Of a stretch of DNA of 48,277 nt, positions 5,981 through 47,637 are shown in pieces. This stretch comes from Christensenellaceae bacterium (GTDB taxonomy: Bacteria; Bacillota; Clostridia; Christensenellales; Borkfalkiaceae). How positions within the stretch are numbered: position 1 is the stretch's first letter; each line of letters starts with the position of its first letter. The stretch covers positions 1 through 48,277 of the forward strand of contig JAZQVG010000167.1 in the NCBI GenBank assembly GCA_045631625.1. The letters are read 5' to 3'. Made by a program: the position numbers and the translations under genes. The notes under the pieces were generated by a model that was not told where the DNA came from, did no database searches, and worked only from the letters and a program-made list of their open reading frames with translations.

Positions 5981-5996
5981 TTTCCGTCACCCCTTG

Positions 5997-6236: not shown

Positions 6237-6279
6237 TAGACATATACCCCCTTTTTAGATTTTATTTTAGCGATTGCTT

Positions 6280-6714: not shown

Positions 6715-6716
6715 TT

Positions 6717-7250: not shown

Positions 7251-7264
7251 AATCTATCTCCTTA

Positions 7265-26989: not shown

Positions 26990-27018
26990 TTGACAACTAA
27001 TTGAAATAATGCTATCAT
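26990..27018 (+). promoter_or_regulatory. early promoter, TTGAAATAA-spacer family (copy 1)
   Basis: TTGACAACTAATTGAAATAATGCTATCAT: -35 at 26990-26995, -10 TATCAT at 27013-27018, with TGc. Confidence 0.65.
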
Positions 27019-33560: not shown

Positions 33561-33589
33561 TTGACAAAGTATTTTTTATGTGCTACAAT
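33561..33589 (+). promoter_or_regulatory. promoter (plus strand of divergent pair)
   Basis: TTGACA(33561-33566), 17-nt spacer, TGcTACAAT (-10 at 33584-33589). Confidence 0.65.
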
Positions 33590-33619
33590 GGTGGTACAAA
33601 CTAAAAAGGAGAAACGAAA

Positions 33620-34342
33620 ATGAAAGATATAAAGAAACAAGCGAAAAGGCTTGAACAACCGAAAAAGCCAACGGATAAAGAAATCGTGAAAAAGAATAAC
33701 GACAACGTAAAAGAACTCAATAGGCAATTAGAAGTGGTGGCTCAAAAGTTCATAGAAAACCCACAACCGTTTTTTGCGGAAAGAGAGAAAGAAGTTGCCG
33801 AAGTAATTGAAAAGTATGGCGATTTGCAAAACCAAGACTTGCAAGAAGGAATTATAAGCAAGAAAGATTATGCGATACAACTTTCAAAGCACCTTATCAA
33901 GCCGTTTATCAAAAATGCAGGTAGTGTAAAGGCAAAGCACACACCACACTCAATCAAAATGGTTAGCGATTGGTATTGGGAAAATATCGTTCTTAAAGTA
34001 AACGAAACTACACAATTCGTGCCAAGCATTTACCACATTTGCAAATTGTTAGGTATTAGTTATACGGCTTTACGAAACTATGCAAACGAAGGCAGTCAAG
34101 AAATGCGAGAAACTTGCGAAATGATTAAAGACGAGTTTGTCGAATACTACCAACAAAAAGGCTTAACGAAAGAACTTAACGATGTAATGGCAATGTTCGT
34201 GCTTAAAACTTCTTTCCAACAACGAGAAAATGATGTACCACAAATTGCAGTTGTCAATGTAAATACTTCCGCACAAGAAAAAATCGACAAGTATGCAAGG
34301 CAATATGGCTTTGAGATTTGGAACGAAAATGATAATAATTGA
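33620..34342 (+). CDS. terminase-small-subunit-like HTH protein
   Basis: 240 aa with AAGGAG RBS. It has a K/E-rich N-terminus and an HTH (SIYHICKLLGISYTALRNYANEG). A C-terminal KGLTKELNDVMAMFVLKTSFQQREND segment resembles the TerS motif G....a.iFlLKn.fgw.D. Confidence 0.4.
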   Translation: MKDIKKQAKRLEQPKKPTDKEIVKKNNDNVKELNRQLEVVAQKFIENPQPFFAEREKEVAEVIEKYGDLQNQDLQEGIISKKDYAIQLSKHLIKPFIKNAGSVKAKHTPHSIKMVSDWYWENIVLKVNETTQFVPSIYHICKLLGISYTALRNYANEGSQEMRETCEMIKDEFVEYYQQKGLTKELNDVMAMFVLKTSFQQRENDVPQIAVVNVNTSAQEKIDKYARQYGFEIWNENDNN

Positions 34343-34360
34343 AAAACTTTTGAAAAACAC

Positions 34361-34389
34361 TTGACAATTACTTGAAATAATGTTAAAAT
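34361..34389 (+). promoter_or_regulatory. early promoter, TTGAAATAA-spacer family (copy 2)
   Basis: TTGACAATTACTTGAAATAATGTTAAAAT: -35 at 34361-34366, -10 TAAAAT at 34384-34389, with TGt. Confidence 0.65.
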
Positions 34390-34395
34390 TATAAT

Positions 34396-34484
34396 AGCAA
34401 AGCAAGGACAGTAGGTTGCAAACTATTGAACTTTCGCTATTCAAAGTTCTTACTTGCTTTGACTATACTTTAAGGAATAGCATT
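34396..34484 (+). promoter_or_regulatory. structured 5' leader (nested hairpins)
   Basis: Outer 9-bp stem CAAAGCAAG(34398-34406)/CTTGCTTTG(34453-34461). Inner 7-bp stem GAACTTT(34428-34434)/AAAGTTC(34443-34449). It begins at the predicted transcription start. Confidence 0.4.
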
Positions 34485-34838
34485 ATGGTAGTAAAAATCA
34501 AAGACCTTAACAATGGAAATTATGTTAGCATATTAAATGATATAGCACAAGATATGTCATTATCGGTACACTCTCGTTCTATGTTATTGTATATGTTAAG
34601 TATGCCACCCGAAACTCAATTTACGGTTAGCAAGTTAGCAATTAAAAATGGGTTTACGGATAAACGAACAAAAGCAACTATTAAAGAATTAGTTGAGCGT
34701 GGGTATATGAAGTCTATAAAAATAAAAGACGAAAAGGGCAAATTTATTAAGTTTGATTATATAGTAACTCAAAGGCAAAATCAATTTTCTCAATTAGAAG
34801 AAGATTTTAATGCTATTAAAAGTGACTTGCCTTTTTAG
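34485..34838 (+). CDS. RepA_N-like winged-helix DNA-binding protein (replication initiator-like or regulator)
   Basis: The track start (34416, TTG) is rejected in favour of the ATG at 34485 with AAGGA upstream. The pattern YVSILNDIAQD.SLS..SRSMLLYMLSMP....FTVSKLA...G.....TKATIKELVERGYM is typical of RepA_N/DnaD-type winged helices. Confidence 0.5.
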   Translation: MVVKIKDLNNGNYVSILNDIAQDMSLSVHSRSMLLYMLSMPPETQFTVSKLAIKNGFTDKRTKATIKELVERGYMKSIKIKDEKGKFIKFDYIVTQRQNQFSQLEEDFNAIKSDLPF

Positions 34839-34920
34839 TAAATACTACTCACTCTTATTAGCAATAAATAAGTATTAAATAAATAATATATTAAATAAAT
34901 ATAATAAAGGGTGTCGAAAA

Positions 34921-34944
34921 CCATTGGGTAGTTTACCCATTGGG
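34921..34944 (+). promoter_or_regulatory. direct repeat CCATTGGG x2 (16-nt period) upstream of XRE gene
   Basis: Copies at 34921-34928 and 34937-34944, about 35 nt before the start at 34979. Possible operator. Confidence 0.35.
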
Positions 34945-34978
34945 GCGGATTTGATACCTAATGGATAAAGGAGATAAT

Positions 34979-35158
34979 ATGAAACCTAATCAAATCAAAG
35001 AATTAAGGGAAGAACTTATATTAGACCAAAAGCAATTTGCGATATTATTTGGCGTATCACGAACCACTATTAGCGATTGGGAAAACGGAAAAACTAAACC
35101 ATCTTTTGCGAATATGAGAAAATTAAGAGATATGTATAATAAGCATATAGTTAAATAA
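34979..35158 (+). CDS. XRE-family HTH regulator (Cro/CI-type)
   Basis: Start at MKPNQ (AAGGAG RBS). QKQFAILFGVSRTTISDWENGKTKPS is a canonical XRE HTH. Confidence 0.75.
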   Translation: MKPNQIKELREELILDQKQFAILFGVSRTTISDWENGKTKPSFANMRKLRDMYNKHIVK

Positions 35159-35171
35159 AAGGAGTAATAAA

Positions 35172-35348
35172 ATGGCAACTGAAAAACTTTATACACTTGA
35201 AGAAACGGCAAAGCAACTTGGTGTAAAAACAAGAACTATGTATAATTATATGAGAGATAAAAAAGTTCTTGGAATTAAGTTAGGCAAATCTTGGAAAATT
35301 AAGAAAAGCGAAATTGATTATATTAAAGAAAATGGTTTAAGACAATAA
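35172..35348 (+). CDS. excisionase/MerR-type HTH DNA-binding protein (58 aa, not in ORF track)
   Basis: ATG at 35172 with AAGGAG RBS. LYTLEETAKQLGVKTRTMYNYMRDKKVLGIKLGKSWKIKKSEIDYI matches the HTH_17/Xis pattern. Confidence 0.65.
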   Translation: MATEKLYTLEETAKQLGVKTRTMYNYMRDKKVLGIKLGKSWKIKKSEIDYIKENGLRQ

Positions 35349-35360
35349 AGGAGCAACATT

Positions 35361-37169
35361 ATGAAATTTACACGACTAATTAAATTACAAATAGAGAATT
35401 TTAAAGGCATAGCAAACGGCAATTTTGTTTTCAATGGCGAAAACACCGAAATCGTAGCCGACGTTATGCAAGGCAAATCAACTATCAAAGACGCTTATTT
35501 ATGGTGTTTAGGTATGGAAATCGACAATTTCTACCCTTGCGACAAAGACAATAAAATTATCGAAGGGTTAGAAACGAAAGTTGAACTCACACTTGATATT
35601 GACGGCATTGAATATGTTTTGAGCCGTAGTGCAAAAGTTAAGTATAAAAACAAAGTGTTTGACGGCTACAAAAAAGATATGTTTGAGTTTGACCGAGTGC
35701 CTTGCAATACCACCGAGTACAAAACCAAACTTTGCGACCTTTTAGGTGTAGATAATTTTGACACCCTTAAATACTTGACTATATTAAATTATTTTAATGA
35801 GCAAGTAAATTGGAAAGACCGTAGAGCATTGATTTACGATTTATTCGTTGACAAGACTGCTATTGATAGCCTTAAAGACAATGAAAAGAATAGCCTTATA
35901 AGAAAAGAATTGTTAAAGGGCAAAACAAGTGCCGATATTAACACTATGCTTAATAGCGAAAACAATAGCCTTGTTGATAGCAAGCGAAAGAACGAAATCT
36001 TACTTGCCGACAAACAAAACGAATTAAGTGGTTTTGCGAATATTGAATATGCAAGTATTGAAACCGAATTAGAAGTCGTAGAAGGCGAAATAAAGGGCGA
36101 AGAAGATAGGGTTAGAGCAATTAACCAAGCCGACAATAAAAAGGCGTTAGAGAGCCAAATAAAGTCGTTAGAAGTGGACTTGCGAGTTGCACAAGGCGAA
36201 GATAAACTCAAAAAAGAAGAAATTGAAAGAAAAATAGGCACTTGCGAAGTAAATGTTGATTATCTTAAAGCAGACGGAGAAAGCCTTGAAAAAGACATTG
36301 AAAAGTACACAAAAGAATATAACGATTTAAAGGTTGAAGAATTTAAAAATGATATGGCTACTTGTCCTTATTGCAAGCAACCTTTACCGTTAAGTGAAAT
36401 CGAAAGTAAAAAAGCCTACTTTGAAGATTATAAAGAAAAGCAATTAGAAAACCTTAAAGAAGTTATTATTAAAGATAGGAAAGAACTTGAAGAATTAAAG
36501 CAACATTACACTTTCAAACTTGCTTTATTAGAAAACGCTAAACAAGAATTAGCCGACTTTAAACCAAACGAAAAGATTGGCGAGTTGTCAAGTAAAATTT
36601 TACAACTCAAAGAAGAACTTGCAAAGTGCGAAAACAACGTAATCGACACTTCATACCTTGAAGAACTCAAAGCAAGGCGAAACTTCCTTATCGTTGAACT
36701 TGGCAAAAAAGATAGCCACGAAAAGTTAAAGGCAAAAATCAACCAACTTATTGCCGAACAAAAAGAACTCGTAAATGTAGAAATTGAATTGGCTAAAAAA
36801 AGAAGTCAGTTAGAAGAATATACACTTGATATTATCGCATTAGTAAATGATAGTATTAACTCGCATTTTGACGGTGTTAAATTTAAGTTGTTTGAAGAAT
36901 TAACGGCTACTGCTTCAAAGTCGATAAAAGAAACGCTTATTTGCCTTAACAATGGCGTAGATTATGTCGCACAAAGCACTGGACAAAAAGCCAACTCTAA
37001 TTGCATTATCGTTAGCACTTTACAAAAAAGATTAGGAGTGAATTTACCAATTTGGCTTGATGACGCTTCAATCTTGAACTTGAAGAACGAACCAAACAAT
37101 CAACTTATCTATTTACTTAACCAAAAAGGCAAAGAGTTAGATTGTGTGAAAATTAAGGAGATATACTAA
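35361..37169 (+). CDS. Rad50/SbcC-like ABC ATPase with coiled coil and CxxC zinc hook
   Basis: 602 aa. N-terminal IENFKGI...VADVMQGKSTIKDAYLW is a Walker A variant (A instead of the first G). The central ~320 aa are K/E/L coiled coil, with CPYC (about 36362-36373) at the midpoint. C-terminal QSTGQK is signature-like and IWLDDAS is Walker B. Confidence 0.65.
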   Translation: MKFTRLIKLQIENFKGIANGNFVFNGENTEIVADVMQGKSTIKDAYLWCLGMEIDNFYPCDKDNKIIEGLETKVELTLDIDGIEYVLSRSAKVKYKNKVFDGYKKDMFEFDRVPCNTTEYKTKLCDLLGVDNFDTLKYLTILNYFNEQVNWKDRRALIYDLFVDKTAIDSLKDNEKNSLIRKELLKGKTSADINTMLNSENNSLVDSKRKNEILLADKQNELSGFANIEYASIETELEVVEGEIKGEEDRVRAINQADNKKALESQIKSLEVDLRVAQGEDKLKKEEIERKIGTCEVNVDYLKADGESLEKDIEKYTKEYNDLKVEEFKNDMATCPYCKQPLPLSEIESKKAYFEDYKEKQLENLKEVIIKDRKELEELKQHYTFKLALLENAKQELADFKPNEKIGELSSKILQLKEELAKCENNVIDTSYLEELKARRNFLIVELGKKDSHEKLKAKINQLIAEQKELVNVEIELAKKRSQLEEYTLDIIALVNDSINSHFDGVKFKLFEELTATASKSIKETLICLNNGVDYVAQSTGQKANSNCIIVSTLQKRLGVNLPIWLDDASILNLKNEPNNQLIYLLNQKGKELDCVKIKEIY

Positions 37170-38284
37170 TGCACTTAACATATCAAGAAAAATTAAAAGG
37201 TAGGAAAGTTGGTGTTGTGTTTGGCTCTTTTGCCCCACTTCATCAAGGGCATTTAGATTTAATAATGAGAGCAAAAAAAGAAAATGACGGTGGTTGCGTT
37301 GTAATTGTATGTGGCTATGACGGAGATAAAGGCGAACCTTTAATGCCACATAAAAAGCGTTATCGTTATGTAAGAGAGTTTTTTGCCGATGATGAACTTG
37401 TTTCCGTTTATGCAATTAACGACACCGAAATTAAAATTGGAAAATATCCAAGCGGTTGGGAAGGGTGGCTAAAAGAATTTAATTCTATTTGGGAAAATGC
37501 AGTATCAAATTGTTTTGACATCGAAAGAATATGGTATGTTGGAGAACAAGAATATTATAATGACCTTATTGAAAGACACGAAAAAGCAGTTCTTGTTAAT
37601 AGGAAAGAAAATCTTATTAGTGCAACAATGATACGCCAAAACCCTATAAAATATTGGGATAAAATAACTTTCCCTTTCCGTAGAGTTTTTAGTACAAATA
37701 TACTTATTATAGGAACTGCAAGTGAAGGTAAAAGCGTTTTAACTAAAGATTTAGGAAAATATTTTAATGCTCCATATAGTTGGGAGTGGGCAAGAGATTA
37801 TATGATTGAAAGTTGTTTGTCTGATTGGGAAATAGAAAGCACCGATTTTATGGCTTTTCTTGAAGGGCAATATAATCTTAATAAAAAACTAATAAATTCT
37901 CACGAAAATCACGGGGTTTTCTTTGCGGATAGTGACGCTATGACTACAAGAATGTATGCCGAACAATACGCAAAAGAAGAAAGTTGTGTTTTTACACAAG
38001 ACGAATTTGAAAAAATTGCAATTATGGCTGATGAATATACAAGAAAAAGCAAATGGGATAAGATTTATTTGCTTTGTCCTAAAGGTAAATTCGTTGACGA
38101 CCACTCTCGTTTTATGATACACGCAGGTATGGAAAAAAGACAAGCATTATTTGATATACTTTGCGAAAATATAAAAAGAACAGGTAATTGGGATAAAGTA
38201 ACTATTCTTGATGGTGGTTATTGGAAAAACTTTGAAAAAATAGTTAAAGATGTAAAGGAGATTATTGAAAATGGGAAAAATTAA
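37169..38284 (+). CDS. nadR: bifunctional NMN adenylyltransferase / ribosylnicotinamide kinase NadR (no N-terminal HTH)
   Basis: 371 aa. GVVFGSFAPLHQGHLDLI matches E. coli NadR GVVFGKFYPLHTGHIYLI. ISATMIRQNPIKYWDKI matches ISGAQIRENPFRYWEYI. The kinase P-loop IIGTASEGKSVLTKDLG matches ILGGESSGKSTLVNKLA. SDAMTTRMY matches TDFVTTQAF. Confidence 0.85.
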   Translation: MHLTYQEKLKGRKVGVVFGSFAPLHQGHLDLIMRAKKENDGGCVVIVCGYDGDKGEPLMPHKKRYRYVREFFADDELVSVYAINDTEIKIGKYPSGWEGWLKEFNSIWENAVSNCFDIERIWYVGEQEYYNDLIERHEKAVLVNRKENLISATMIRQNPIKYWDKITFPFRRVFSTNILIIGTASEGKSVLTKDLGKYFNAPYSWEWARDYMIESCLSDWEIESTDFMAFLEGQYNLNKKLINSHENHGVFFADSDAMTTRMYAEQYAKEESCVFTQDEFEKIAIMADEYTRKSKWDKIYLLCPKGKFVDDHSRFMIHAGMEKRQALFDILCENIKRTGNWDKVTILDGGYWKNFEKIVKDVKEIIENGKN

Positions 38285-38963
38285 AAATTGGTTTTATAAT
38301 GAATATATAAAAGATTGGAAGGTGTTTGATTATGTGTTTTTATTTGGTTTACTTGCCGTTCAACTTGCTATGACACCATTTATGATAGATAGTGGTTTAT
38401 CTATTGGTTGGAATATATTTACATTGTTTGCAAGTTTTATAGGAACTCTTGCTACAATAATTTGTGCAAAAGGTAAAATGAGTTATTACGTTTGGGGTTT
38501 CATTCAAACAATTATGTTCTTGATTTTCAACATAAAATTAAAATTATGGGTTGAAAGTGCCGAACAAGTTTATTATCTAATAATTATGGTTGTTGGCGTT
38601 TTTGTTTGGAATAAAAACATAAACAACAAGACAAGTTCTATAAAAGCGAAAAAGTTAAGCCCACTAAAAATGATTTTTATGATAATTGCTTTAGTTGCTT
38701 TATCGGTAGTAATTTATTTTGTAGATGTGGCTATTGGCGGAACTGCTCCATTGCTCGATACTTTAAGTTTAGCAATTTCAATAGTAGCAGGTGTGTTAAA
38801 CTCATATTGCTACAAAGAACAATGGATTTTATGGTTTGTTCTTGATGTCGTTCAAACAATTTTATACTTTGTTATTGCTCAACCTATTATGGCGGTTATG
38901 TATATTGCTTGGACTATTAACACAATCTATGGTTGGGTTAAATGGAGTGAAGTAAAAAATTAA
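38271..38963 (+). CDS. pnuC: nicotinamide riboside transporter PnuC
   Basis: The ATG at 38271 is 10 nt after AAGGAG (the track start at 38265 is TTG). About 7 TM helices. KEQWILWFVLDVVQTILYF matches E. coli PnuC ENWLLWVIINVISVVIF. The C-terminal W..N..YGW.KW motif is present. It overlaps the nadR end. Confidence 0.8.
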   Translation: MGKIKNWFYNEYIKDWKVFDYVFLFGLLAVQLAMTPFMIDSGLSIGWNIFTLFASFIGTLATIICAKGKMSYYVWGFIQTIMFLIFNIKLKLWVESAEQVYYLIIMVVGVFVWNKNINNKTSSIKAKKLSPLKMIFMIIALVALSVVIYFVDVAIGGTAPLLDTLSLAISIVAGVLNSYCYKEQWILWFVLDVVQTILYFVIAQPIMAVMYIAWTINTIYGWVKWSEVKN

Positions 38964-38988
38964 AGATTTGTATTAAAGGAGAAACATA

Positions 38989-39558
38989 ATGAAAAGATTT
39001 ATATTATTAGTATTAACAATTATTTGCTTTGCTTTACCATTCCCAAGTTGGATATATAGTATTGTCAAGACTGTACAATTTAGTGCTAATTGTGGCGATT
39101 ATATTGAACTTTCGGCAGACGCTAATTCAGTTGTTTTAGCGGAAAAACATTTGACAAGTGCAATAAATTATCTTGAAGAAAACAATCTTACGAGCGGTCA
39201 AGCAAAGTGGTTTGTAGCATATCCTAAAAATGACATTGGTTTATGGTATGAAAACTTAAAAACCGCACAATCACAATTACAAGAAATGATTAAAGACGGC
39301 AACTATACGGAACTTGAACAAAGTAATATGCTTATGAAGTTAAGGGAAACCCTTATGAATGGTGGAGAAAGCGAAAATATTACTGTGCCTTTAGCAATAT
39401 CGTTAATGCCTAACGGAACATTATTGGTTTGGCTAAATAGCGTTTTATGGATGTTTGCTTGGGCGTTAGGTGGAATTATGTGTTGGAGAACTGTAAATGC
39501 GTTTGAATATGCGTATTGTAAAAGGATAATATTCGATACAAGTCGTAGTTGTTGGTAA
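38989..39558 (+). CDS. membrane protein (N- and C-terminal TM helices), unknown function
   Basis: 189 aa with AAGGAG RBS. A signal/anchor-like N-terminus and a hydrophobic C-terminal segment flank a ~110-aa soluble domain. Confidence 0.65.
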   Translation: MKRFILLVLTIICFALPFPSWIYSIVKTVQFSANCGDYIELSADANSVVLAEKHLTSAINYLEENNLTSGQAKWFVAYPKNDIGLWYENLKTAQSQLQEMIKDGNYTELEQSNMLMKLRETLMNGGESENITVPLAISLMPNGTLLVWLNSVLWMFAWALGGIMCWRTVNAFEYAYCKRIIFDTSRSCW

Positions 39559-39572
39559 AAGGAGAATAACCA

Positions 39573-39824
39573 ATGAAAAAAACAGTTTTATCAATTAGAG
39601 ATTTTGTAATCTTGTATAATATAGTAGTTAGAGAAATAGGCTATATGGAAAGCCCAAGATTAAGTTTTTGTCTTAAGGAAGAAGAAATAGAAAAACGAGA
39701 ACAAGAATATAAAGAAAGGCTTTCTAAAAACCCTCATTACCAAGATTTATTGCGTATAAGGGAAAAACTTGGCGAACTCAATATCGAAATTGAAACGCCT
39801 AATGTGGAGATTGAAGAAAAATGA
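39573..39824 (+). CDS. small hypothetical protein
   Basis: 83 aa with AAGGAG RBS and an E/K-rich C-terminal half. Confidence 0.6.
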   Translation: MKKTVLSIRDFVILYNIVVREIGYMESPRLSFCLKEEEIEKREQEYKERLSKNPHYQDLLRIREKLGELNIEIETPNVEIEEK

Positions 39825-39899
39825 TAGATAGAACAAGAGAAATGATAAAATTAAAACAAGACGGTATGACTTATAGAGAGATAGCAAGGGGAAAGTTTT

Positions 39900-41087
39900 A
39901 TGAAAGACTTAAAAATATTTACTAACAATATAGAAGAAAAAGCAACGCAACAAATTGATTTATTATTGAACCAAGAAGCATTTAAGAATTGCAAAGTAAG
40001 AATTATGCCTGATGTTCACGCTGGAAGTGGTTGTGTAATTGGTTTTACTGCTGACTTGGGAGATAAACTAATACCTAATGTCGTTGGGGTAGATATTGGT
40101 TGTGGTATGACTTGGGTAAAACTTGCAAATAATGAAATTGATTTAGAAAAACTTGATAAAGTAATAAGAGATAATATTCCTTGTGGTATGAACGTAAGAA
40201 GTGAGAAACTACCTACCGATATAAAATTAACTGATTTATATTGTTATAATCAATTAAGAAATGTAGAATATTTAGAGTGTTCTTTGGGTAGTCTTGGTGG
40301 GGGTAATCATTTTATAGAAGTTGATAAAAACGAACAAGGAGAGTTGTATTTAATAGTTCATAGTGGAAGTAGAAATTTAGGCAAACAAGTTTGCGATATT
40401 TACCAATCACTTTCTATTGATAGGTGTTCTTTCAAAGAAGAAATGAGAGCCGAAAAGGAAAAGGCTATTAAAGAATTAACGGAAAGTAATAGAAAAACCG
40501 AAATACAAGAAACACTTAAAACGATAGAGAAAAAGTATAGTGGCAAAACTAAACTACCAAAAGACTTGTGCTATTTAGAATTAGAAGATAGAGAACATTA
40601 TTTGCACGATATGAGATTGTGTCAAAAATGGGCTAAACAAAACCGTGAATATATTATTAAAATTATATGCGAAGAAATGGGCTTTATTAAAACTAATTTA
40701 GTTCATACAATACACAATTATATAAGCGATGACAACATTGTTCGTAAAGGAGCAATATCTTGTCAAAAAGGCGAATTTGCACTAATTCCTATGAATATGA
40801 AAGACGGCTGTTTAATTGTCGTTGGTAAAGGAAATGAAGATTGGAATTGTTCAGCACCACACGGAGCAGGTCGCATAATGTCAAGAGTACAAGCAAAAAA
40901 AGTGTTATCTATGCAAGATTATCAAAACGAAATGAAAGACATTTACACAACTTCGGTTTGTCAAGAAACTATTGATGAAGCACCTATGGTTTATAAGCCT
41001 ATGCAAGAAATTATTGACAATATAAAAGATACTGCCGATATTGATAGTATTATTAAACCAATATATAATTTTAAAGCAAAAGAATAA
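39900..41087 (+). CDS. rtcB: RtcB-family 3'-phosphate RNA ligase
   Basis: 395 aa. All hallmark motifs are present: IMPDVHAGSG, GGGNHFIEVD, VHSGSRNLG, IHNY, IPMNMKDG and SAPHGAGR. Confidence 0.9.
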   Translation: MKDLKIFTNNIEEKATQQIDLLLNQEAFKNCKVRIMPDVHAGSGCVIGFTADLGDKLIPNVVGVDIGCGMTWVKLANNEIDLEKLDKVIRDNIPCGMNVRSEKLPTDIKLTDLYCYNQLRNVEYLECSLGSLGGGNHFIEVDKNEQGELYLIVHSGSRNLGKQVCDIYQSLSIDRCSFKEEMRAEKEKAIKELTESNRKTEIQETLKTIEKKYSGKTKLPKDLCYLELEDREHYLHDMRLCQKWAKQNREYIIKIICEEMGFIKTNLVHTIHNYISDDNIVRKGAISCQKGEFALIPMNMKDGCLIVVGKGNEDWNCSAPHGAGRIMSRVQAKKVLSMQDYQNEMKDIYTTSVCQETIDEAPMVYKPMQEIIDNIKDTADIDSIIKPIYNFKAKE

Positions 41088-41120
41088 ATGAAAAATTCTT
41101 AAAAAGTTTACTAAAAGTTA

Positions 41121-41149
41121 TTGACAAGTATTGAAATAAATGTTATAAT
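41121..41149 (+). promoter_or_regulatory. early promoter, TTGAAATAA-spacer family (copy 3)
   Basis: TTGACAAGTATTGAAATAAATGTTATAAT: -35 at 41121-41126, -10 TATAAT at 41144-41149, with TGt. Confidence 0.7.
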
Positions 41150-41173
41150 TGTAATAAGAAAAGGAGAGAAGAA

Positions 41174-41356
41174 ATGAACATTGACACGAAAAAAATTAGA
41201 GAGCAGTTATTCTTAACGCAAGCCGAATTTGCAAAACTAATCGGTTTGAGTGAAGTTGCGGTTTCTAAATGGGAAAGGGGTATCAACAAGCCTACCCTTA
41301 AACACCTTAAAATCATAGTCGAAATCGCAAGAGATAATGGAATTTGGGTGGAGTAG
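41174..41356 (+). CDS. XRE-family HTH regulator
   Basis: 60 aa. LTQAEFAKLIGLSEVAVSKWERGINKPT is a canonical XRE HTH. Confidence 0.75.
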   Translation: MNIDTKKIREQLFLTQAEFAKLIGLSEVAVSKWERGINKPTLKHLKIIVEIARDNGIWVE

Positions 41357-41359
41357 GGT

Positions 41360-42085
41360 ATGAACTTTCATTTTTTGTTTGAGCAGTCAGGAACATTTAA
41401 AAATGTTTTTAAGGAATTAGGGCATAATTGCTATGATTATGATATTCTAAATGAAAACGGACAAACCGACTTTGTTGTTGATTTATTCAAAGAAATAGAA
41501 AATGAATATGATAATATTGTTTACAATAAAAATATAAAAACAATCTTTACTAATATGACGAAAGAAAATGATTTTATAATTGCATTTTTCCCTTGCACTC
41601 ATTTTTGCGATGCCAATAGTTTGCAATATAGACTTTTAATTGGCGGAAAGAAAAGAGAACTTGATAAAGTTTCTATTGAAAGATTGATAAAACGAAACCA
41701 AGATAGAGCAAGATTTTTTGAAGTCTATTTGAAATTTTGTTTTATTTGCAAAGAAAAAGGTATAAAAACAATTATTGAAAACCCTGCAAGTGGGGGGGGG
41801 AATAATTATTTAGAGGTATTTAGTCCTATTGATATAGCATATAAAGAGAAAAACAGAGCATTGTTTGGAGATGACTTTAAAAAGCCAACAAATTATTTTT
41901 CAATAAATTTTGATATGAAAGAAACTTTTTATATGTTCTCTGATAACAATATCTTTACTAAAAACATATACGATATACAAAGCAAAAATGTTAGTACAGG
42001 TGGTAGAAGCCTAATAACTAAAACCTATGCAAAAAATTTTTATTTTAGATTTATAGAAAATAACATAAAGGAGCAAAATAAATGA
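41360..42085 (+). CDS. phage-type DNA (cytosine-5) methyltransferase-like protein
   Basis: 241 aa. FLFEQSGTFKNVFKELGHNCYDYDI, FFPCTHFC and IIENPASGG parallel the ACEYSG.VR.AF...GH.A.SCD / PPCTYL / ENP.G motifs of short prophage cytosine MTases, as I recall them. It contains a G9 tract. Confidence 0.5.
   Translation: MNFHFLFEQSGTFKNVFKELGHNCYDYDILNENGQTDFVVDLFKEIENEYDNIVYNKNIKTIFTNMTKENDFIIAFFPCTHFCDANSLQYRLLIGGKKRELDKVSIERLIKRNQDRARFFEVYLKFCFICKEKGIKTIIENPASGGGNNYLEVFSPIDIAYKEKNRALFGDDFKKPTNYFSINFDMKETFYMFSDNNIFTKNIYDIQSKNVSTGGRSLITKTYAKNFYFRFIENNIKEQNK
41792..41800 (+). repeat. G9 homopolymer inside the C5-MTase-like ORF
   Basis: GCA AGT GGG GGG GGG AAT encodes A-S-G-G-G-N, right after the ENP motif. 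Confidence 0.9.
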
Positions 42086-43140
42086 ACGAAATTATAGAAA
42101 AAAAACAAAGTACAAACGATTTTGCATTACAAGTAGAGCAAAAGAAAAACGAATTGACTACGATATTGCAAAAAACAATTTTAGAGCAATATGCGTATGA
42201 CCTTAATTCGCAAACGCCCGAAAGTTTCAAGAAGAAACAAGAAGTTGCAAAGTTTATAAGTCAACTTGTAAATACGAAAGATAAAAGTGGTAGATATGCG
42301 ATTTTATCGTGTAGCCAAGAAAGTATTATGGATTGTTGCATTACATATTGCAATAACGAGTTAAACTTTTTCCGTAATCAAGCCTATCTTTTCCCATTTG
42401 GGAATAAACTTTCGTTTATGATTGGTAAAGACGGATATGTTGCTATGGCTAAACAACTTAACCCAGACATTGAAGATTTTTACTATGATGTAGTATATAA
42501 CGGCGATATTTTTGAGTATAATAAAGTTGCAGGCAAGACAACTATTGTTAAGCACGTTCAAAAACTCGCAAATATCACTTGCAATATAAACGATATAGTA
42601 TGTGCTTATGCTACGGTTTGCTATAAAAATGGCACTCACGAAGCCGATATTATGACTATTCAAGAGATTTTAAATGCACTTAAAACGGCACAAAAGGGTG
42701 GTTTTACCGACACGCACAAATTAAATCCAAAGTTGATGTTAAGCAAGTTCCCTTTAAGAAGATTAGCCAAGAAGAAAATCAATCAAACGGCAAACGAAGA
42801 AATGCGTAAAAATCTTGTCTTTGAAGATGATAATTATATTACTAATGAAGAATTGCAAGGTAATATCGAACTTGAAATAGACGACACACAAGAATTTAGC
42901 GAACCAACGGAAGTAGAAGTTGTAGAGCCTATTGAAGTAGTTGAGCAAGAAGAAACGGAATTTACACAAGAAGAAATTGCCGAAATAATGCAAGAAGAAT
43001 ACGAAGAAGAAAAGCAAAAAGAAAACGAAAAGACTATTTACTATTCTCAATGGCTAAACGAATACAAAAGCAATGGTTGGAAAATGGTTGAAGGCTCGTA
43101 TGACAAGGCGAATAAAACGGTTAAGGTGGTAAAGGTATAA
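42082..43140 (+). CDS. recT: RecT-family single-strand annealing recombinase
   Basis: 352 aa. SQESIMDCCITYCNNELNFFRNQAYLFPFGNKLSFMIGKDGYVAMAKQ follows the RecT core pattern (ayliPyg...iGy.G...la). It has an acidic C-terminal tail. Confidence 0.6.
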   Translation: MNEIIEKKQSTNDFALQVEQKKNELTTILQKTILEQYAYDLNSQTPESFKKKQEVAKFISQLVNTKDKSGRYAILSCSQESIMDCCITYCNNELNFFRNQAYLFPFGNKLSFMIGKDGYVAMAKQLNPDIEDFYYDVVYNGDIFEYNKVAGKTTIVKHVQKLANITCNINDIVCAYATVCYKNGTHEADIMTIQEILNALKTAQKGGFTDTHKLNPKLMLSKFPLRRLAKKKINQTANEEMRKNLVFEDDNYITNEELQGNIELEIDDTQEFSEPTEVEVVEPIEVVEQEETEFTQEEIAEIMQEEYEEEKQKENEKTIYYSQWLNEYKSNGWKMVEGSYDKANKTVKVVKV

Positions 43141-43142
43141 TT

Positions 43143-43370
43143 ATGGAATTTCACTTAAAATTAGGCGAAAATGAAACAATAGAAGATATAAATACTTTGA
43201 GTGTTGCTAATGCTTTGGTTAAGTTTATAAGTCACCACAATAAATTTAATAATATGCCAATATTTGAGAATGATATTTTTATAAATGATATTGCAAAGAT
43301 TTTGCAAGTTTTGGCGAATAGCGAAGAAAGATTTTATGATAACTTAAAGGAAGAAAATGCTAACACTTAA
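43143..43370 (+). CDS. small hypothetical protein
   Basis: 75 aa. It overlaps the next gene by 14 nt. Confidence 0.55.
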   Translation: MEFHLKLGENETIEDINTLSVANALVKFISHHNKFNNMPIFENDIFINDIAKILQVLANSEERFYDNLKEENANT

Positions 43371-44055
43371 AGTAATAGGCACAGGTTCGTTAGGCAATAT
43401 GTATTTGCTTAACTACAATGGCGAAAATTTGCTTATCGAACTTGGTATGCCATATAAAGACTTGCTATTAAATATAAACGATATAAATTCGGTTGTTGGT
43501 TGCTTATGTAGTCATCTTGAGCATTTCGACCATAATAACGATAAAACGAATAACGAGTTGAGTAAAATTGGCATTAAAATATTAAGCCATAATAATACTC
43601 AAATAGGCAAGAGATACAAGTTAGGAAGTTTTGAAATCGTGCCTTTACCTTGCATACACAATGTAGAGTGTAGGGGCTATCTAATAAAAGTTGGTGGAGA
43701 TACGTTGCTTTTTGCAACCGATACAAGACTACTACCAAAAGTCAAAAATGTGAAATTCGATTATTTTATCGTTGAAGTAAATTATATTGAAGCAATTAGA
43801 GAGCAAGTAGTTTTAACCGACAACGAAAGTAATGGCTTGCATTTAAACGGAATTTACAAAAACCACCACTCGCTTGAAAGTGCAGTTGAGTATTTTTCAA
43901 GCCTTGACTATAAGCCTAAATATATTATTACTATTCATAAGTCTAATAGTGGGCTTTTCAATGAAGAAAGTGTTGTGGAAGAATTAAGTAGGTTTGCAAA
44001 AGAAGAAGTTTGCATAGCCGAAAATAATACAAAATTTATTTTAGAGGAGATTTGA
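43357..44055 (+). CDS. metallo-beta-lactamase-fold hydrolase (probable recombination nuclease partner)
   Basis: 232 aa. The N-terminus LKVIGTGSLGNMYLLNYNGENLLIELG is followed by SHLEHFDH. This is a variant of HxHxDH with the first His displaced by one residue. Confidence 0.5.
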   Translation: MLTLKVIGTGSLGNMYLLNYNGENLLIELGMPYKDLLLNINDINSVVGCLCSHLEHFDHNNDKTNNELSKIGIKILSHNNTQIGKRYKLGSFEIVPLPCIHNVECRGYLIKVGGDTLLFATDTRLLPKVKNVKFDYFIVEVNYIEAIREQVVLTDNESNGLHLNGIYKNHHSLESAVEYFSSLDYKPKYIITIHKSNSGLFNEESVVEELSRFAKEEVCIAENNTKFILEEI

Positions 44056-44057
44056 CA

Positions 44058-44276
44058 ATGACAAACATTGAAAGACAAAAATCGCTTGACAAACAAAAGT
44101 GGCTTGAAAGCGAAAATCAAGGTCACGATATGAGTGGGTGTATGCTTTATTGCGAGTGTTGCGAAAAAGCCGACCATACTCACCCTACCGAAAACGGAAA
44201 ATGTTATGCAAGCCAAGAAGAACGAGAGCGAAATTGCTTATGTGCAAAAGCATTTAATCGTATGAAAAGGAGATAA
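44058..44276 (+). CDS. small Cys-rich protein
   Basis: The ATG at 44058 is 8 nt after GAGGAG (the track start at 44052 is TTG). It contains SGCMLYCECCEKADH...C...C.C. Confidence 0.55.
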   Translation: MTNIERQKSLDKQKWLESENQGHDMSGCMLYCECCEKADHTHPTENGKCYASQEERERNCLCAKAFNRMKRR

Positions 44277-44277
44277 T

Positions 44278-44643
44278 ATGAAACTTGAAGAACTAAAAAT
44301 TACAATTACAAGGCTTGAAGATGGGCTTGATAAAGACGGAAATACTTATTTGAAAGCCAAAGGTTACAACTCGTTTAAGAGTGGCGGTAGAACTTCATTT
44401 AACTTTTTTAGCAATATTAAGTTATACCCTATAAGCCAAGAGCAAATGGACGAAACCAAAAATAGACTTTTTTCACAAACCGAAGAAAAGCCTAAAATTA
44501 ACATTATTGCTTATCAAAGTGAATTGGTTACACCTTTGCAAAACGGCACTTTAAGGGCAAATCTTATTTGTTATAAATACGACTTTGCTAAAAGAAAACT
44601 TTACAAAAAAAAGGAGTTGCTAAACTATGGCAAAGATAATTAA
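44278..44643 (+). CDS. hypothetical protein
   Basis: 121 aa with AAGGAG RBS. Confidence 0.6.
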   Translation: MKLEELKITITRLEDGLDKDGNTYLKAKGYNSFKSGGRTSFNFFSNIKLYPISQEQMDETKNRLFSQTEEKPKINIIAYQSELVTPLQNGTLRANLICYKYDFAKRKLYKKKELLNYGKDN

Positions 44644-44839
44644 CTACGGAAATGCAAAACCTATCTATTGTGCTTGTTGTCACGCAACTTATCAATGGGA
44701 GTATGGTGACAAAATAGAAACGGAAGAATTATATCAAATTGATAAAAGTATAATAGTAGCAAGACGGCTTGAATGTCCTAATTGCCATTATTATAACGAT
44801 ATTGAATTTATTAAAGAGGAGAATAAAAATGAAAACTGA
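44627..44839 (+). CDS. zinc-ribbon protein
   Basis: 70 aa with CACC...CPNC and AAGGAG RBS. Confidence 0.55.
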   Translation: MAKIINYGNAKPIYCACCHATYQWEYGDKIETEELYQIDKSIIVARRLECPNCHYYNDIEFIKEENKNEN

Positions 44840-45179
44840 AAACCCAATGCAATATTACAAAGATTTTGCCAATGGCAAATTAAACAAATACAACCACATT
44901 AAGCCTTTAATTGATGTCTATGGCAAAGATTTTAACGACAAAGACCTTTATGGCGAAAATGGTTTAGTGGCTCTACTTGCACCATACCAAAACGCATACA
45001 ACGATATTATGGACGACCAACTTTTTTATATCAATAAATGCACAACAAAAAGCAAAAAGTTAGGCGAACCTAAAACCGAAGGCTATATCAAAAGTGCCGA
45101 GTTTTGCTTAAATCGTATGTATCAAATCGTGGCAAATTATGTAGAAGCAAAGAAAAATCAAAAGAAAAAGGAGAATTAA
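44829..45179 (+). CDS. hypothetical protein
   Basis: Start moved from 44769 to the ATG at 44829 (GAGGAG RBS). 116 aa. Confidence 0.55.
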   Translation: MKTENPMQYYKDFANGKLNKYNHIKPLIDVYGKDFNDKDLYGENGLVALLAPYQNAYNDIMDDQLFYINKCTTKSKKLGEPKTEGYIKSAEFCLNRMYQIVANYVEAKKNQKKKEN

Positions 45180-45182
45180 ATT

Positions 45183-46148
45183 ATGTTATATGGAATTTTA
45201 TTTGGCGTATTATTTGTAGGTTTAGCAATCGGTGCAATAGCACTTGCCACTTACGGCTATGAAGAAGATAAAGGCGGTTGCAAGGTAGGTGGAATTATTG
45301 GAACAATAGTTTCCGTACTTTTATTTGCTTGTATTCCGTTTAGTTTTAAGACTATCCAAACAGGTGAAGTCGCAATCGTAAAAGAAATGGGTAAAGTAAT
45401 TGACGTTAGAGAAGCAGGTACTCATTTTGATTTTTGGCTCATTAGAAGTTATGAAAAATACGACATTAAAGTACGAAGCGTAACTTCAAACACTATGGCT
45501 TACTCAAACGACAAGCAAACAATGACAGTTGAAATGACAACACAATACCAAGTTAATAAAGACAAGTTAAAAGAAATCGCAAGCACCTACGGCTCTTTAT
45601 CCGCTTTAGAAGATAGGATAAGTTCAATAGTTATTGAAAGAACAAAATCGGTACTTTCTTCTTATAATGCCGATAGTATTATTAGTGATAGAACGAAAGT
45701 TAGTGTTGAAGTGGCTACGGTTGTTGAAGAAGCCATTGGCGAAAAATATTTTATTGACGTTACCAATGTCGCTCTTACCAATATTGATTTCTCTGACGCT
45801 TATGAACAATCGGTTGAACAATCTATGATTGCTAAACAAGAAGTAGAAAAAGCAAAAGCGGAAGCGGAAAAACTTTTAGTTGAAGCACAAAACAAAGTTG
45901 CGATTGCGGAAGCCGAAGCAAACGCTAAAAAAGCACAAGCAAATGGTGAAGCCGAAGCATTAAAAATTCAAGCCGAAGCGGAAGCAAAAGCCCTCGAAAC
46001 TGTGCAATTAGCGTGGGAAGCCATAAGCCCCGAAGTTAGAGAAATTATGTTAAGAGAAATGGGCATTGAAAAGTGGAATGGCGAACTTCCCGATACTATG
46101 GTTGGTAGCGATTTTATTGAACAATTATTAGGTTTATTAAATAAATAG
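45183..46148 (+). CDS. SPFH/band-7 (prohibitin/HflK-like) membrane protein
   Basis: 321 aa. N-terminal TM helices are followed by IQTGEVAIVKEMGKV...GTHF, the start of an SPFH domain. The Ala/Glu-rich coiled coil AEAEANAKKAQANGEAEALKIQAEAEAKA is typical of HflK/C. Confidence 0.7.
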   Translation: MLYGILFGVLFVGLAIGAIALATYGYEEDKGGCKVGGIIGTIVSVLLFACIPFSFKTIQTGEVAIVKEMGKVIDVREAGTHFDFWLIRSYEKYDIKVRSVTSNTMAYSNDKQTMTVEMTTQYQVNKDKLKEIASTYGSLSALEDRISSIVIERTKSVLSSYNADSIISDRTKVSVEVATVVEEAIGEKYFIDVTNVALTNIDFSDAYEQSVEQSMIAKQEVEKAKAEAEKLLVEAQNKVAIAEAEANAKKAQANGEAEALKIQAEAEAKALETVQLAWEAISPEVREIMLREMGIEKWNGELPDTMVGSDFIEQLLGLLNK

Positions 46149-46158
46149 GAGAATTGAT

Positions 46159-46500
46159 ATGCAAAAATTTTACTTTATTGGAAATCTCGTCAGAGATGTG
46201 GAAACGAAACAAAGCCAAAACGGAAACCCAATCGCAAAGTTTTGTGTTGCCGTTCAAAGACCTTACAAAAAAGATACTGCCGACTTTTTTGAAGTTGTTG
46301 CTTATAATAAACTTGGCGAGTTATGTTCAAACTATCTTTCAAAAGGTAGACAAGTTGCCGTTATAGGTTATATGACAACTCGCACTTACGAAAAAGACGG
46401 AACTACAAGAAAAATTTACGAAGTTGTAGCCGAAGATATTAGATTTTTAGACCGCAACTCAAAAGAACAAGAGCAAGTAGACGAAAACACACTATTTTAA
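46159..46500 (+). CDS. ssb: single-stranded DNA-binding protein
   Basis: 113 aa. OB-fold pattern GNLVRDVE......G...A.F.VAV.R......DFF.VV.....AE.....L.KG..V.V.G. The acidic C-terminus ends in ENTLF. Confidence 0.85.
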   Translation: MQKFYFIGNLVRDVETKQSQNGNPIAKFCVAVQRPYKKDTADFFEVVAYNKLGELCSNYLSKGRQVAVIGYMTTRTYEKDGTTRKIYEVVAEDIRFLDRNSKEQEQVDENTLF

Positions 46501-46511
46501 AGGCGAGAATT

Positions 46512-46583
46512 AGCCCTATAACCGATTTTTAGGCTTGGCACGATAAATTTATCAAAGGAGCAACTATCGTGCCTTGTAGGGCT
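46512..46583 (+). other. nested perfect inverted repeats between ssb and the GIY-YIG gene
   Basis: Outer stem AGCCCTA(46512-46518)/TAGGGCT(46577-46583). Inner stem GGCACGATA(46537-46545)/TATCGTGCC(46565-46573). No U-run follows, so it is not a classic terminator. Confidence 0.5.
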
Positions 46584-46598
46584 TAATAAGGGAGAATT

Positions 46599-47189
46599 AT
46601 GACGAAACCAAATTACAAGCAAATATTTGCTAAAAAGAAAGCAATAGCCGAAAAATTAAAAAAAGTTTGCCCTAATATAACCAATGTTAGTGGAATATAT
46701 TTTTATACAAGAGAAAAACCATTAGAAGAAGATGGTGGTGGTTCTGCATTTTACATCGGCAAAAGTCGAACACTGCTCGATAGGTGTATTTCTCACGATA
46801 TGGGATATTCACAACGAATAGATATTAGCCTAAAGAAACGAAAATATTATAGCAAAGCAAATCCTTATGGGTGGAAACTGAATGTTTTATTCTTTCCCGA
46901 ACATTTGTTAGATGAAAAGGAAAGATACTATATAGAGTTATATAAGAGCAAAAATTTTGAGTGTTATAACATAGAAAATGGTGGGACTACTAACAAACAA
47001 ATAATAGGCGAAAGAAAGCCACCTAAAAGTTATCGTGACGGAATTGCTCAAGGGTATAAGAACGCCGTCAAAGAAATCAAAGTTTTTTTTGAAAAGTATC
47101 TTGACTTTACAATAAAAGGGAATTATAATAAAACTAAAGAAAGAAAATTCAATGAGTTTAAGGAGTGGCTTAATAGTGAAGAAAATTAA
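46599..47189 (+). CDS. GIY-YIG family (homing-type) endonuclease
   Basis: 196 aa. SGIYFYT...FYIGKSRTLLDRCISH...YYIELYKS...YNIENGG gives the GIY / YIG / R / E / N signature in order. Confidence 0.65.
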   Translation: MTKPNYKQIFAKKKAIAEKLKKVCPNITNVSGIYFYTREKPLEEDGGGSAFYIGKSRTLLDRCISHDMGYSQRIDISLKKRKYYSKANPYGWKLNVLFFPEHLLDEKERYYIELYKSKNFECYNIENGGTTNKQIIGERKPPKSYRDGIAQGYKNAVKEIKVFFEKYLDFTIKGNYNKTKERKFNEFKEWLNSEEN

Positions 47190-47496: not shown

Positions 47497-47501
47497 ATAA
47501 A

Positions 47502-47527
47502 GGGTAGTGGAAACACTACCTTTTTTC
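47502..47527 (+). terminator. rho-independent terminator
   Basis: GGTAGTG-GAAA-CACTACC followed by TTTTTTCTTT. Confidence 0.75.
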
Positions 47528-47565
47528 TTTCCAAAAAAATATTTTAAAAATTTTTGCAAAAATAG

Positions 47566-47594
47566 TTGACAACTTAAAATGAGTATGTTAGAAT
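47566..47594 (+). promoter_or_regulatory. sigma-A type promoter
   Basis: TTGACA(47566-47571), 17-nt spacer, TGtTAGAAT (-10 at 47589-47594). Confidence 0.65.
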
Positions 47595-47637
47595 ATGGTT
47601 AGAATTTGATTACAAAATTAAAAAAGGGGGTGTAAAA

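Follow-up and report, generated by a model that had tools for sequence, protein, structure and literature searches.

The region at positions 34361–41149 of contig JAZQVG010000167.1 (assembly GCA_045631625.1, Christensenellaceae bacterium), all 48,277 nt of which were analysed and are termed the window here, encodes small regulators, an SbcC/Rad50-like ATPase, the NAD+-salvage proteins NadR and PnuC, proteins of 189 and 83 aa, and the RNA ligase RtcB. A preliminary description had taken this block as one co-transcribed cargo island. Comparison with relatives indicates that the block is probably the front of a ~14-kb early/middle operon (33.56–47.52 kb) of a mosaic phage with accessory slots, and not a discrete cassette. 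The phage is uncultured, low-GC and siphovirus-like. Co-transcription of the block by read-through is plausible, as had been proposed, but its genes assort independently between sharp, gene-sized junctions, and the ATPase gene does not appear to be cargo.

The window is ~32% GC and has the appearance of a phage genome: up to ~24.4 kb, its minus strand carries open reading frames (ORFs) of structural size, and from ~25.8 kb onwards early genes occupy the plus strand. For comparison, the gene contexts of 7 related metagenomic phage lineages were retrieved and their genes were scored by tblastn. Across these lineages, the ATPase is 66–94% identical to that of the window.

Exchange of genes at fixed positions

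Two lineages, L004 and L027, both encode an ATPase with 94% identity to that of the window and carry different cargo. L004 has the NadR–PnuC pair and lacks the genes for a winged helix-turn-helix (wHTH) protein, the regulators XRE65 and HTH_17, RtcB and the 189-aa protein, its 240-aa gene being followed directly by the ATPase gene. L027 has the wHTH, XRE65, HTH_17 and 83-aa genes and lacks those for NadR, PnuC, RtcB and the 189-aa protein. Segments shared with L004 are 33605–34336, 35375–39002 (ATPase, NadR and PnuC; 95%), 39558–39884 and 41087–41365. Those private to the window in this comparison are 34337–35374 (promoter, wHTH, XRE65 and HTH_17), 39003–39557 (the 189-aa gene, in place of which L004 has an unrelated 140-aa gene), 39885–41086 (RtcB) and 41366 to ~42860. 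The junctions are sharp and gene-sized. In more distant relatives the slots are minimal: between ATPase and RecT stand a 47-aa gene and an HNH gene in L011, and Dcm methylases in L013 and L014. Independent assortment of the genes, which the preliminary description had itself named as grounds for rejecting the island, is thus found in the related phages, and the block is not gained and lost as a unit, as the island proposal had supposed.

In the arrangement suggested by these comparisons, the 240-aa gene, the ATPase gene, the 83-aa gene, the promoter with XRE60, and the RecT, MBL hydrolase and SSB genes would be anchors, and three to four variable slots would lie between them, in which related phages recombine to swap single genes or small sets of genes. 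Ahead of the ATPase, slot 0 would hold a self-promoted mini-cassette (the promoter at 34361, the 117-aa wHTH gene and XRE65) and then HTH_17; slot A, which extends from the ATPase stop codon to the 83-aa gene, the NadR–PnuC pair and a private orphan membrane protein; slot B, RtcB, which would have entered by a replacement truncating a helix-turn-helix (HTH) gene; and slot C, after XRE60, a methyltransferase. NadR–PnuC, RtcB, the methylase and the ATPase would each act on their own.

Like morons and the variable accessory hotspots of mosaic phages, such as the P2/P4 hotspots (PMC9122126), these slots have fixed positions between anchors, differing cargo and sharp junctions, and the phage family of the window carries hotspot-like cargo, namely methyltransferases, NAD+ salvage and RNA ligases. 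Unlike that of the P2/P4 hotspots (PMC9122126), the cargo in the window looks like counter-defence, not defence. As to the promoter and terminator that a self-contained moron brings with it, most inserts have neither of their own: the RtcB, 189-aa and NadR–PnuC inserts have neither, and the wHTH–XRE65 cassette alone has a promoter, which moves with it, and no terminator. A transposon- or integron-like cassette was considered and rejected, as neither flanking direct or inverted repeats nor an integrase or transposase were found (ORFs of 25.8–47.2 kb and other ORFs were scanned).

Promoters and the extent of the transcription unit

Three exact copies of the motif TTGACAA-N3/4-TTGAAATAA are present in the window, at 26990, 34361 and 41121, where 0 are expected (100 shuffles). 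Each is a sigma-70/sigmaA-type promoter close to consensus, in which a 17-nt spacer leads to a TG-extended -10. The copy at 34361..34389 (plus strand), which heads the mini-cassette, matches the consensus at 11/12 positions with TG, and that at 41121..41149 (plus strand), a conserved internal promoter ahead of XRE60, at 12/12 with TG; the third copy (TTGACAACTAATTGAAATAATGCTATCAT; 26990..27018, plus strand) is supported by the exact motif, by alignment with the other two and by an nhmmer profile (E 3e-14). A direct scan detects 9 promoters of the form TTGACAA-N14/15-TGnTAnnnT in the window, at 26990, 33561, 34361, 41121 and 47566 on the plus strand and at 33214, 25111, 24895 and 21689 on the minus strand. 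The TTGAAATAA motif promoters are a sub-family of these general strong promoters of the phage, and in this respect are not the unusual type that they had been taken for. The copies at 34361 and 41121 are real and non-random, but because of the third copy and the nine-promoter set, which includes the one at 33561 just upstream, they do not uniquely bracket anything.

The promoter at 41121 and the XRE60 segment are 94–96% identical in L004, L006, L008 and L027, and this conservation marks the promoter as a backbone feature and not as a cassette end. The sigma-70-like promoter with an extended -10 at 33561..33589 (plus strand; sequence scan), ahead of the 240-aa gene, can by its position also drive the block; relatives without the 34361 cassette have no promoter candidate nearer than this one. 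The minus-strand members of the set face into minus-strand blocks, so that early and late regions alike seem to be served by one promoter consensus; no late promoter type specific to the phage was apparent.

Two terminator scans agree that no convincing plus-strand terminator lies inside the block, as the preliminary description had stated, or from there on to 47499. The first convincing intrinsic terminator downstream of 33561 is located in an intergenic gap at 47499..47524 (plus strand), where a GC-rich hairpin is followed by a T-run (GGGTAGTG-GAAA-CACTACC + T6); other hairpin-plus-T candidates in 34300–47700 are weak and all within coding sequence. As a promoter ends no transcript and no terminator precedes 47499–47524, position 41149, the proposed end of the island, is not a unit boundary. 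The lack of a terminator inside the block makes its co-transcription by read-through plausible. Transcripts would start at the sigmaA-type promoters at 33561, 34361 and 41121 and read through to the terminator at 47499–47524.

The ATPase as part of a recombination module

The ATPase gene (35361..37169, plus strand) encodes a 602-aa SbcC/Rad50-like ABC ATPase with a coiled coil and a CxxC hook (phrog_77, E 4e-36). Walker A residues G38 and K39, residues D567 and D568, and the CxxC residues C335 and C338 are invariant in 16 family members, in agreement with its earlier designation as a zinc-hook ATPase, and the Rad50 N-terminus is matched weakly (E 0.0065). Because no SbcD/Mre11-type phosphoesterase partner is present in 33–47 kb and the conserved partners are RecT and an MBL-fold hydrolase, the protein is assigned to a phage ATPase–RecT–MBL module and not to SbcCD. 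In the window, the RecT-like single-strand annealing protein is encoded at 42082..43140 (plus strand; phrog_148, E 3e-29; Pfam RecT precomputed in relatives) and the MBL-fold metal-dependent hydrolase at 43357..44055 (plus strand; phrog_392, E 2e-35), the gene order downstream of 41121 being XRE60, methyltransferase, RecT, 75-aa gene, MBL-fold hydrolase, Band_7 protein and SSB.

Full-length homologues of the ATPase with ~26% identity are present in 108 phage records (tblastn). In three siphoviruses of Firmicutes, Clostridium phage phiCp-D, Listeria phage B054 (gp49–51) and Aeribacillus phage AP45, the homologue directly precedes RecT/Bet and the MBL hydrolase, with the same families (phrog_77, phrog_148 and phrog_392), order and strand as in the window. 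The trio is contiguous in those three phages, whereas the window and its close relatives carry 0.9–5.7 kb of variable accessory genes between ATPase and RecT, the interruption in the window being 37169–42081. The ATPase is found in 7/7 related lineages, RecT in the 6 lineages whose sampled DNA extends far enough (L027 ends earlier) and the MBL hydrolase in most of these. Because the ATPase is present in every relative and its homologues stand directly before RecT/Bet and the MBL hydrolase, its gene is best read as a backbone gene of a conserved recombination module and not as cargo. The statement that no gene of the block is needed for core replication therefore fails for the ATPase, which would work with RecT and the MBL hydrolase in recombination-dependent replication.

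A role as a defence-type ABC ATPase (Gabija, PARIS or Septu-like) is disfavoured by the universal linkage to RecT and MBL. PADLOC, applied to the ATPase and the uncharacterised proteins, gave generic HTH matches and a marginal match to the PtuA N-terminal P-loop domain (E 4e-4) only. Between the MBL hydrolase and SSB, a Band_7/SPFH-domain protein (45183–46148; PHROG label 'lipoprotein') is encoded. Its gene is present in L004 and L008 and absent from L006 and L011–L014, and thereby marks another variable slot.

NadR–PnuC as a NARP3-type pair

The NadR gene (37169..38284, plus strand; phrog_3462, E 1e-69) encodes an HTH-less NadR-like bifunctional enzyme (nicotinamide mononucleotide (NMN) adenylyltransferase and ribosylnicotinamide kinase) with the Pfam domains CTP_transf_like (17–157) and AAA_28 (178–340). 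Residues 6–349 align with the HTH-less NadR of PDB 6GYE (E 8e-61), and the sequence contains HQGH (HxGH-type), ISATMIR (ISATxxR-type) and the P-loop GTASEGKS. The 3' end of the gene overlaps by 14 nt the gene for a PnuC-type nicotinamide riboside transporter (38271..38963, plus strand; Pfam NMN_transporter, E 8e-33; phrog_1880, E 1e-38), in which the Pfam match spans 174/175 profile positions and multiple hydrophobic segments are present.

The two genes are always both present or both absent: they occur in L004 and L008–L010 and are missing from L006, L011, L013, L014 and L027, the sequence of L005 stopping within NadR. This amounts to 2/7 related lineages, or 3/8 with the window. NadR and PnuC are 95–98% identical across phages, even where the ATPase is 74% identical. 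This distribution indicates that NadR and PnuC travel as a pair. The NadR start lies one base inside the ATPase stop codon (1-nt overlap); a functional link between ATPase and NadR was considered on this ground and rejected, as other genes occupy that junction in L006 and L027.

Phage NAD+ reconstitution pathway 3 (NARP3) is encoded by Bas30_86 and Bas30_87 of Escherichia phage TrudiRoth (Yan et al., Sci Adv 2026; PMC13464706). Experiments have demonstrated that NARP3 imports nicotinamide riboside, rebuilds NAD+ and overcomes NAD+ depletion by Sir2-HerA, working as two genes (PMC13464706). Like NARP3, the pair in the window is an adjacent two-gene phage module of an HTH-less NadR-like protein (NMN adenylyltransferase plus kinase) and a PnuC-type transporter that are inherited together, and all defining features that can be read from sequence are present. 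On these features, the pair is identified as NARP3, with a counter-defence role assigned by homology. PnuC would import nicotinamide riboside, replenishing NAD+ destroyed by host NADase defences. Unlike NARP3 of Enterobacteriaceae phages, the pair of the window belongs to an uncultured low-GC gut phage family and sits between a recombination ATPase and RecT. Its NadR is nearer to the Lactococcus-type NadR 6GYE (E 8e-61) than to 9X6F (E 2e-23), which is deposited only as 'nicotinamide-nucleotide adenylyltransferase'. NadR occurs in 439 phage records; in Lactobacillus phage LpeD the order is PnuC–NadR–Nudix, side by side, whereas in the window NadR precedes PnuC.

RtcB and the scar of its acquisition

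RtcB (39900..41087, plus strand) is a 3'-phosphate/5'-OH RNA ligase (Pfam E 1.5e-58, 199.5 bits against a cutoff of 27; phrog_1075, E 3e-128). Its segments VGVDIGCG, GGGNHF, HSGSRNLG and PHGAGR align with conserved segments of Thermus RtcB (2EPG). In terms of the published structures, these segments correspond to Asp95, Cys98, His203, His234 and His404 of P. horikoshii RtcB. RtcB is absent from all 7 related lineages. An 86%-identical RtcB occurs in two other phage contexts without NadR or PnuC; the gene is present in 676 phage records, and that of the window is <=56% identical to any deposited phage RtcB.

The insertion point is defined by a 34-codon stump ORF of a ~120-aa HTH_23 gene (39821..39925, plus strand), the ATG of which overlaps the stop codon of the 83-aa gene. 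Over its first 22 codons it corresponds to the HTH_23 gene of L004 and L008 (21/22 identical to L004), after which it diverges: the homology, of 64 nt, stops at 39884, 15 nt before the RtcB start, and the frame runs on out of phase into rtcB. DNA similarity to L004, L008 and L027 stops likewise at 39884/39885. As the stump diverges exactly where DNA similarity ends, RtcB would have replaced most of the HTH_23 gene and four small genes in one event. The stump is thus read as a recombination scar and RtcB (insert 39885–41086) as a single-gene acquisition. The preliminary gene list for 34361–41149 had missed this truncated gene; apart from the weak RepA_N likeness, its calls otherwise hold, and those of the XRE HTH, the Xis-like HTH (HTH_17), NadR, PnuC and RtcB are confirmed by Pfam and PHROGs.

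On the basis of comparative genomics, phage RtcB has been interpreted as repairing RNA cut by metal-independent RNase effectors (PMC7824862). RtcB of the window would reseal tRNA or rRNA cut by host ribonucleases that leave 2',3'-cyclic-phosphate or 3'-phosphate and 5'-OH ends. Like other phage RtcBs (phrog_1075; Bacillus phages Hoody T and CAM003; mycobacteriophages; PMC7824862), it has a full-length domain with conserved metal-binding and guanylyl-histidine segments and is a stand-alone gene; unlike them, it is accompanied by no RtcA, Pnkp or tRNA genes, and its arrival can be traced to replacement by a single gene, with truncation of an HTH gene. In L014 (17457–18089) and L016 (10626–11258), which do not have RtcB, SSB is immediately preceded by another RNA ligase (Pfam RNA_ligase PF09414, 210 aa). 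As relatives without RtcB carry this ligase, RNA repair in the phage family is provided by non-homologous genes at different slots.

Downstream of RtcB, the conserved anchor XRE60 (41174..41356, plus strand; PHROG transcription regulators) encodes a 60-aa XRE-family regulator that is 95–100% identical in L004, L006, L008 and L027. The 241-aa DNA methyltransferase-like gene that follows (41360..42085, plus strand; phrog_757, E 9e-18) occupies a third variable slot; it has no homologue in the 7 lineages, and relatives hold other methylases or nothing there. The methylase would protect phage DNA from restriction.

Regulator genes before the ATPase and the mini-cassette

The 240-aa backbone gene (33620..34342, plus strand) is found in 7/7 related lineages with 55–97% identity. 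It heads the early operon, far from the structural module, and its product has a weak GP3_package-like HTH (Pfam E 1.6e-7), a match to the DNA-packaging protein gp3 (small-terminase-like HTH). This location makes a DNA-binding regulator the probable identity of the product, rather than a terminase subunit.

Next lies the gene for a 117-aa wHTH protein (34485..34838, plus strand; likely start ATG 34485). It had been called RepA_N-like, and PHROG matches (E 7e-11 to 1e-8) do liken it to the N-terminal ~100 residues of replication initiators or DnaD, but this likeness is weak: no RepA_N Pfam match is found at E<=0.01, and at 117–140 aa the protein is not a full-length initiator. XRE65 (34961..35158, plus strand; Pfam E 1.4e-14), a 65-aa XRE-family HTH_3 regulator, has an orthologue only in L027 (92%) among the 7 lineages. 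The HTH_17 gene (35172..35348, plus strand; Pfam E 1.6e-10), for an excisionase/MerR-like small DNA-binding protein, is present in 4/7 lineages, with 100% identity in L006 and L027 and 46% in L011 and L013, and is absent from L004, L008 and L014.

Window positions 34328–35137 correspond to L027 9772–10581 at 96%. In L027 this cassette lies downstream of the ATPase, in the slot held in the window by NadR, PnuC and the 189-aa gene, and the promoter heading it is identical over ~55 nt to that of the window. The same cassette is inverted in L014; the wHTH protein itself is 96% identical at L027 9860 and, in L014, where its gene lies on the opposite strand, 63% identical. Where the window has the 34361 cassette, L006 (9227–9643) and L027 (7204–7620) have another promoter (TTGACATTTATTTACATTAGTGATATACT) and a non-homologous 138-aa RepA_N-domain gene, an allelic replacement of both promoter and wHTH gene. 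Between the wHTH gene and XRE65 lie 123 nt of AT-rich DNA with a direct, partly palindromic repeat, CCATTGGGTAGTTTACCCATTGGGG, at 34921–34945, which no T-run follows on the plus strand. One of the HTH proteins may use this repeat as an operator.

The 189-aa membrane protein and the 83-aa gene

The 189-aa orphan membrane protein (38989..39558, plus strand) has an N-terminal transmembrane segment (residues 1–26), a helical-bundle ectodomain and a C-terminal transmembrane segment (residues 145–164), consistent with the two-segment topology first assigned to it. Neither this protein nor the 83-aa protein has a match in Pfam, PHROGs or PADLOC. The 189-aa family comprises 352 homologues of ~169 aa, and its AlphaFold model (AF2, pLDDT 80.7) likewise has a transmembrane helix, a helical bundle and a second transmembrane helix; no fold match at E<0.2 is found in PDB and BFVD, the best (E 0.2) being generic four-helix-bundle noise. 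The gene is absent from all 7 related lineages and, by this comparison, is a single-gene replacement private to this phage. Three metagenomic contexts of homologues are unrelated phages with no NadR, PnuC or RtcB nearby. Twelve genome or metagenome-assembled genome (MAG) loci carry the family, the closest being in Acutalibacteraceae, Oscillospiraceae and other Clostridia MAGs. The 83-aa anchor gene (39573..39824, plus strand) is 82–91% identical in L004, L008/L010 and L027, where it always precedes the HTH_23 gene.

Several further loci of the 189-aa family were noted. L033 is a 156-kb contig (33% GC) binned in a Paludibacteraceae MAG from yak caecum; a long series of small ORFs in one orientation gives it the appearance of a large phage. 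At 3027–8507 it encodes NadR (65% to the window) and PnuC (31%), followed 3.2 kb on by a 49% 189-aa homologue, with nine ORFs between. In an NCBI MAG contig (L021, 5342–6836), the homologue directly follows a phage-borne reverse transcriptase (RVT_1, 341 aa) and an ERCC4 nuclease. Distant members (28–41%) occur in contigs binned in Patescibacteria/CPR (Wolfebacteria, Saccharibacteria) and Nanoarchaeota MAGs (L037, L039, L042 and L043). The spread of the family is unexpectedly wide for an unannotated two-segment membrane protein.

Occurrence in sequence databases

In a large protein database, ~117 close relatives of the ATPase (50–94% identity) are all from ENA or Logan metagenome assemblies. 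The block and both halves of the window gave no match among 50,697 phage records (megablast), and with the ATPase as query, as a single sequence or an alignment, no relatives were found in IMG/VR and GTDB genomes; none of the close relatives is in INPHARED. A scan of JGI metagenomes with the ATPase gave one fragment and one 23% match only, and exact look-up of the window ATPase found no identical record. No tRNA was detected by a tRNA scan of the window and nothing by an Rfam scan of the whole window (including, for example, the NAD+-II 'pnuC motif' riboswitch); Pfam searches of the structural and lysis ORFs gave no useful host clue.

Alternative explanations

That 34361–41149 is one co-transcribed cargo island, whose ATPase and membrane components join NAD+ salvage and RNA repair in one counter-defence system not described before, would agree with its co-oriented, tightly packed genes without an internal terminator, with the similar promoters at its ends and with the position of the NadR start in the ATPase stop codon. 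The comparative data have already largely refuted it: the genes assort independently with gene-sized junctions, the ATPase is universal and paired with RecT and MBL, and both RtcB and the 189-aa gene are found in unrelated phages where the other genes of the block are missing. With the third motif copy, the nine-member promoter family, the absence of a terminator before 47.5 kb and PADLOC matches to generic domains only, this explanation is scarcely credible. The kinds present are known ones (the NARP3 pair, RtcB and a methylase) together with orphan genes, and a new multi-component system is not supported. An extended NARP3, in which the 189-aa and perhaps the 83-aa protein would be a membrane accessory of PnuC/NadR (for example, modulating nicotinamide riboside uptake) in a module of three to four genes, might be suggested by the 189-aa gene directly following PnuC, by the variable uncharacterised gene that also follows PnuC and precedes the 83-aa gene in L004 and L008, and by the proximity of NadR, PnuC and the 49% homologue within 5 kb in L033. 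It is nevertheless very improbable, since the post-PnuC genes of L004 (140 aa) and L008 (257 and 63 aa) are not homologous to the 189-aa protein, 14/15 independent 189-aa loci have no NadR/PnuC in the sampled flanks, the nine ORFs intervene in L033, L027 has the 83-aa gene without NadR/PnuC, and published NARP3 works as two genes (PMC13464706).

NadR–PnuC and RtcB might also be general auxiliary metabolic or housekeeping genes, supplying NAD+ for phage DNA ligase or metabolism and RNA processing, with no role against immunity. PHROGs annotate NadR and PnuC as auxiliary metabolic genes, and NAD+ synthesis genes are widespread in large phages (PMC11662467). This explanation is rather unlikely, as the same two-gene module experimentally overcomes Sir2-HerA NAD+ depletion (PMC13464706), patchy and recent exchange (95–98% identity where the ATPase has 74%) fits arms-race cargo better than core metabolism, and the methyltransferases of neighbouring slots, like the RNA ligase that L014 carries in a slot between MBL hydrolase and SSB, are cargo of the sort usual for anti-restriction and RNA repair. 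The view of NAD+ replenishment and RNA repair as immunity countermeasures therefore stands insofar as these are accessory genes of kinds linked to such functions (PMC13464706, PMC7824862), the role itself being assigned by homology.

The operon of a mosaic phage with accessory slots remains the probable explanation, and several points weigh against it. The sample consists of 7 lineages, and ~100 further ATPase relatives lie on contigs outside it. Read-through and promoter activity are predicted from sequence alone, the counter-defence roles of NadR–PnuC and RtcB are based on homology only, and for this phage no cognate NADase or anticodon-nuclease defence of a host is known, a point that also favours the auxiliary-metabolism explanation. 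The sole hint of the host is that Clostridia MAGs are the closest genome matches of the 189-aa family. Finally, L033, alone of the 12 genome or MAG loci, also carries NadR and PnuC within 5 kb of the 189-aa homologue, and with this one extra locus there is weak evidence of a loose NadR/PnuC/189-aa association.

Implications for the phage family

It is possible, although doubtful at present, that the slots between the ATPase, the 83-aa gene, XRE60 and RecT constitute a counter-defence hotspot in an uncultured gut phage family, probably ruminant and Clostridia-infecting. In this tentative extension, the unannotated occupants (the 189-aa and 83-aa genes and the 140-aa, 257-aa, 328-aa and DUF5662 genes of relatives) would be new anti-defence or superinfection-exclusion genes, and the repeated promoter element would be a portable recombination linker that moves cassettes between slots. 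If so, new anti-defence genes could be found in the slots through guilt by association.

The window provides a base-pair-resolved case of single-gene replacement, in RtcB and the gene stump, and a promoter-headed cassette that changes both slot and orientation. The anchor genes can be used for mining the variable slots for new counter-defence genes. A NARP3-type NAD+-salvage pair is now placed in a low-GC family of gut phages of which only metagenomic sequences are known, and the movement of NadR–PnuC as a two-gene unit supports the published view that NARP3 is mobile arms-race cargo.

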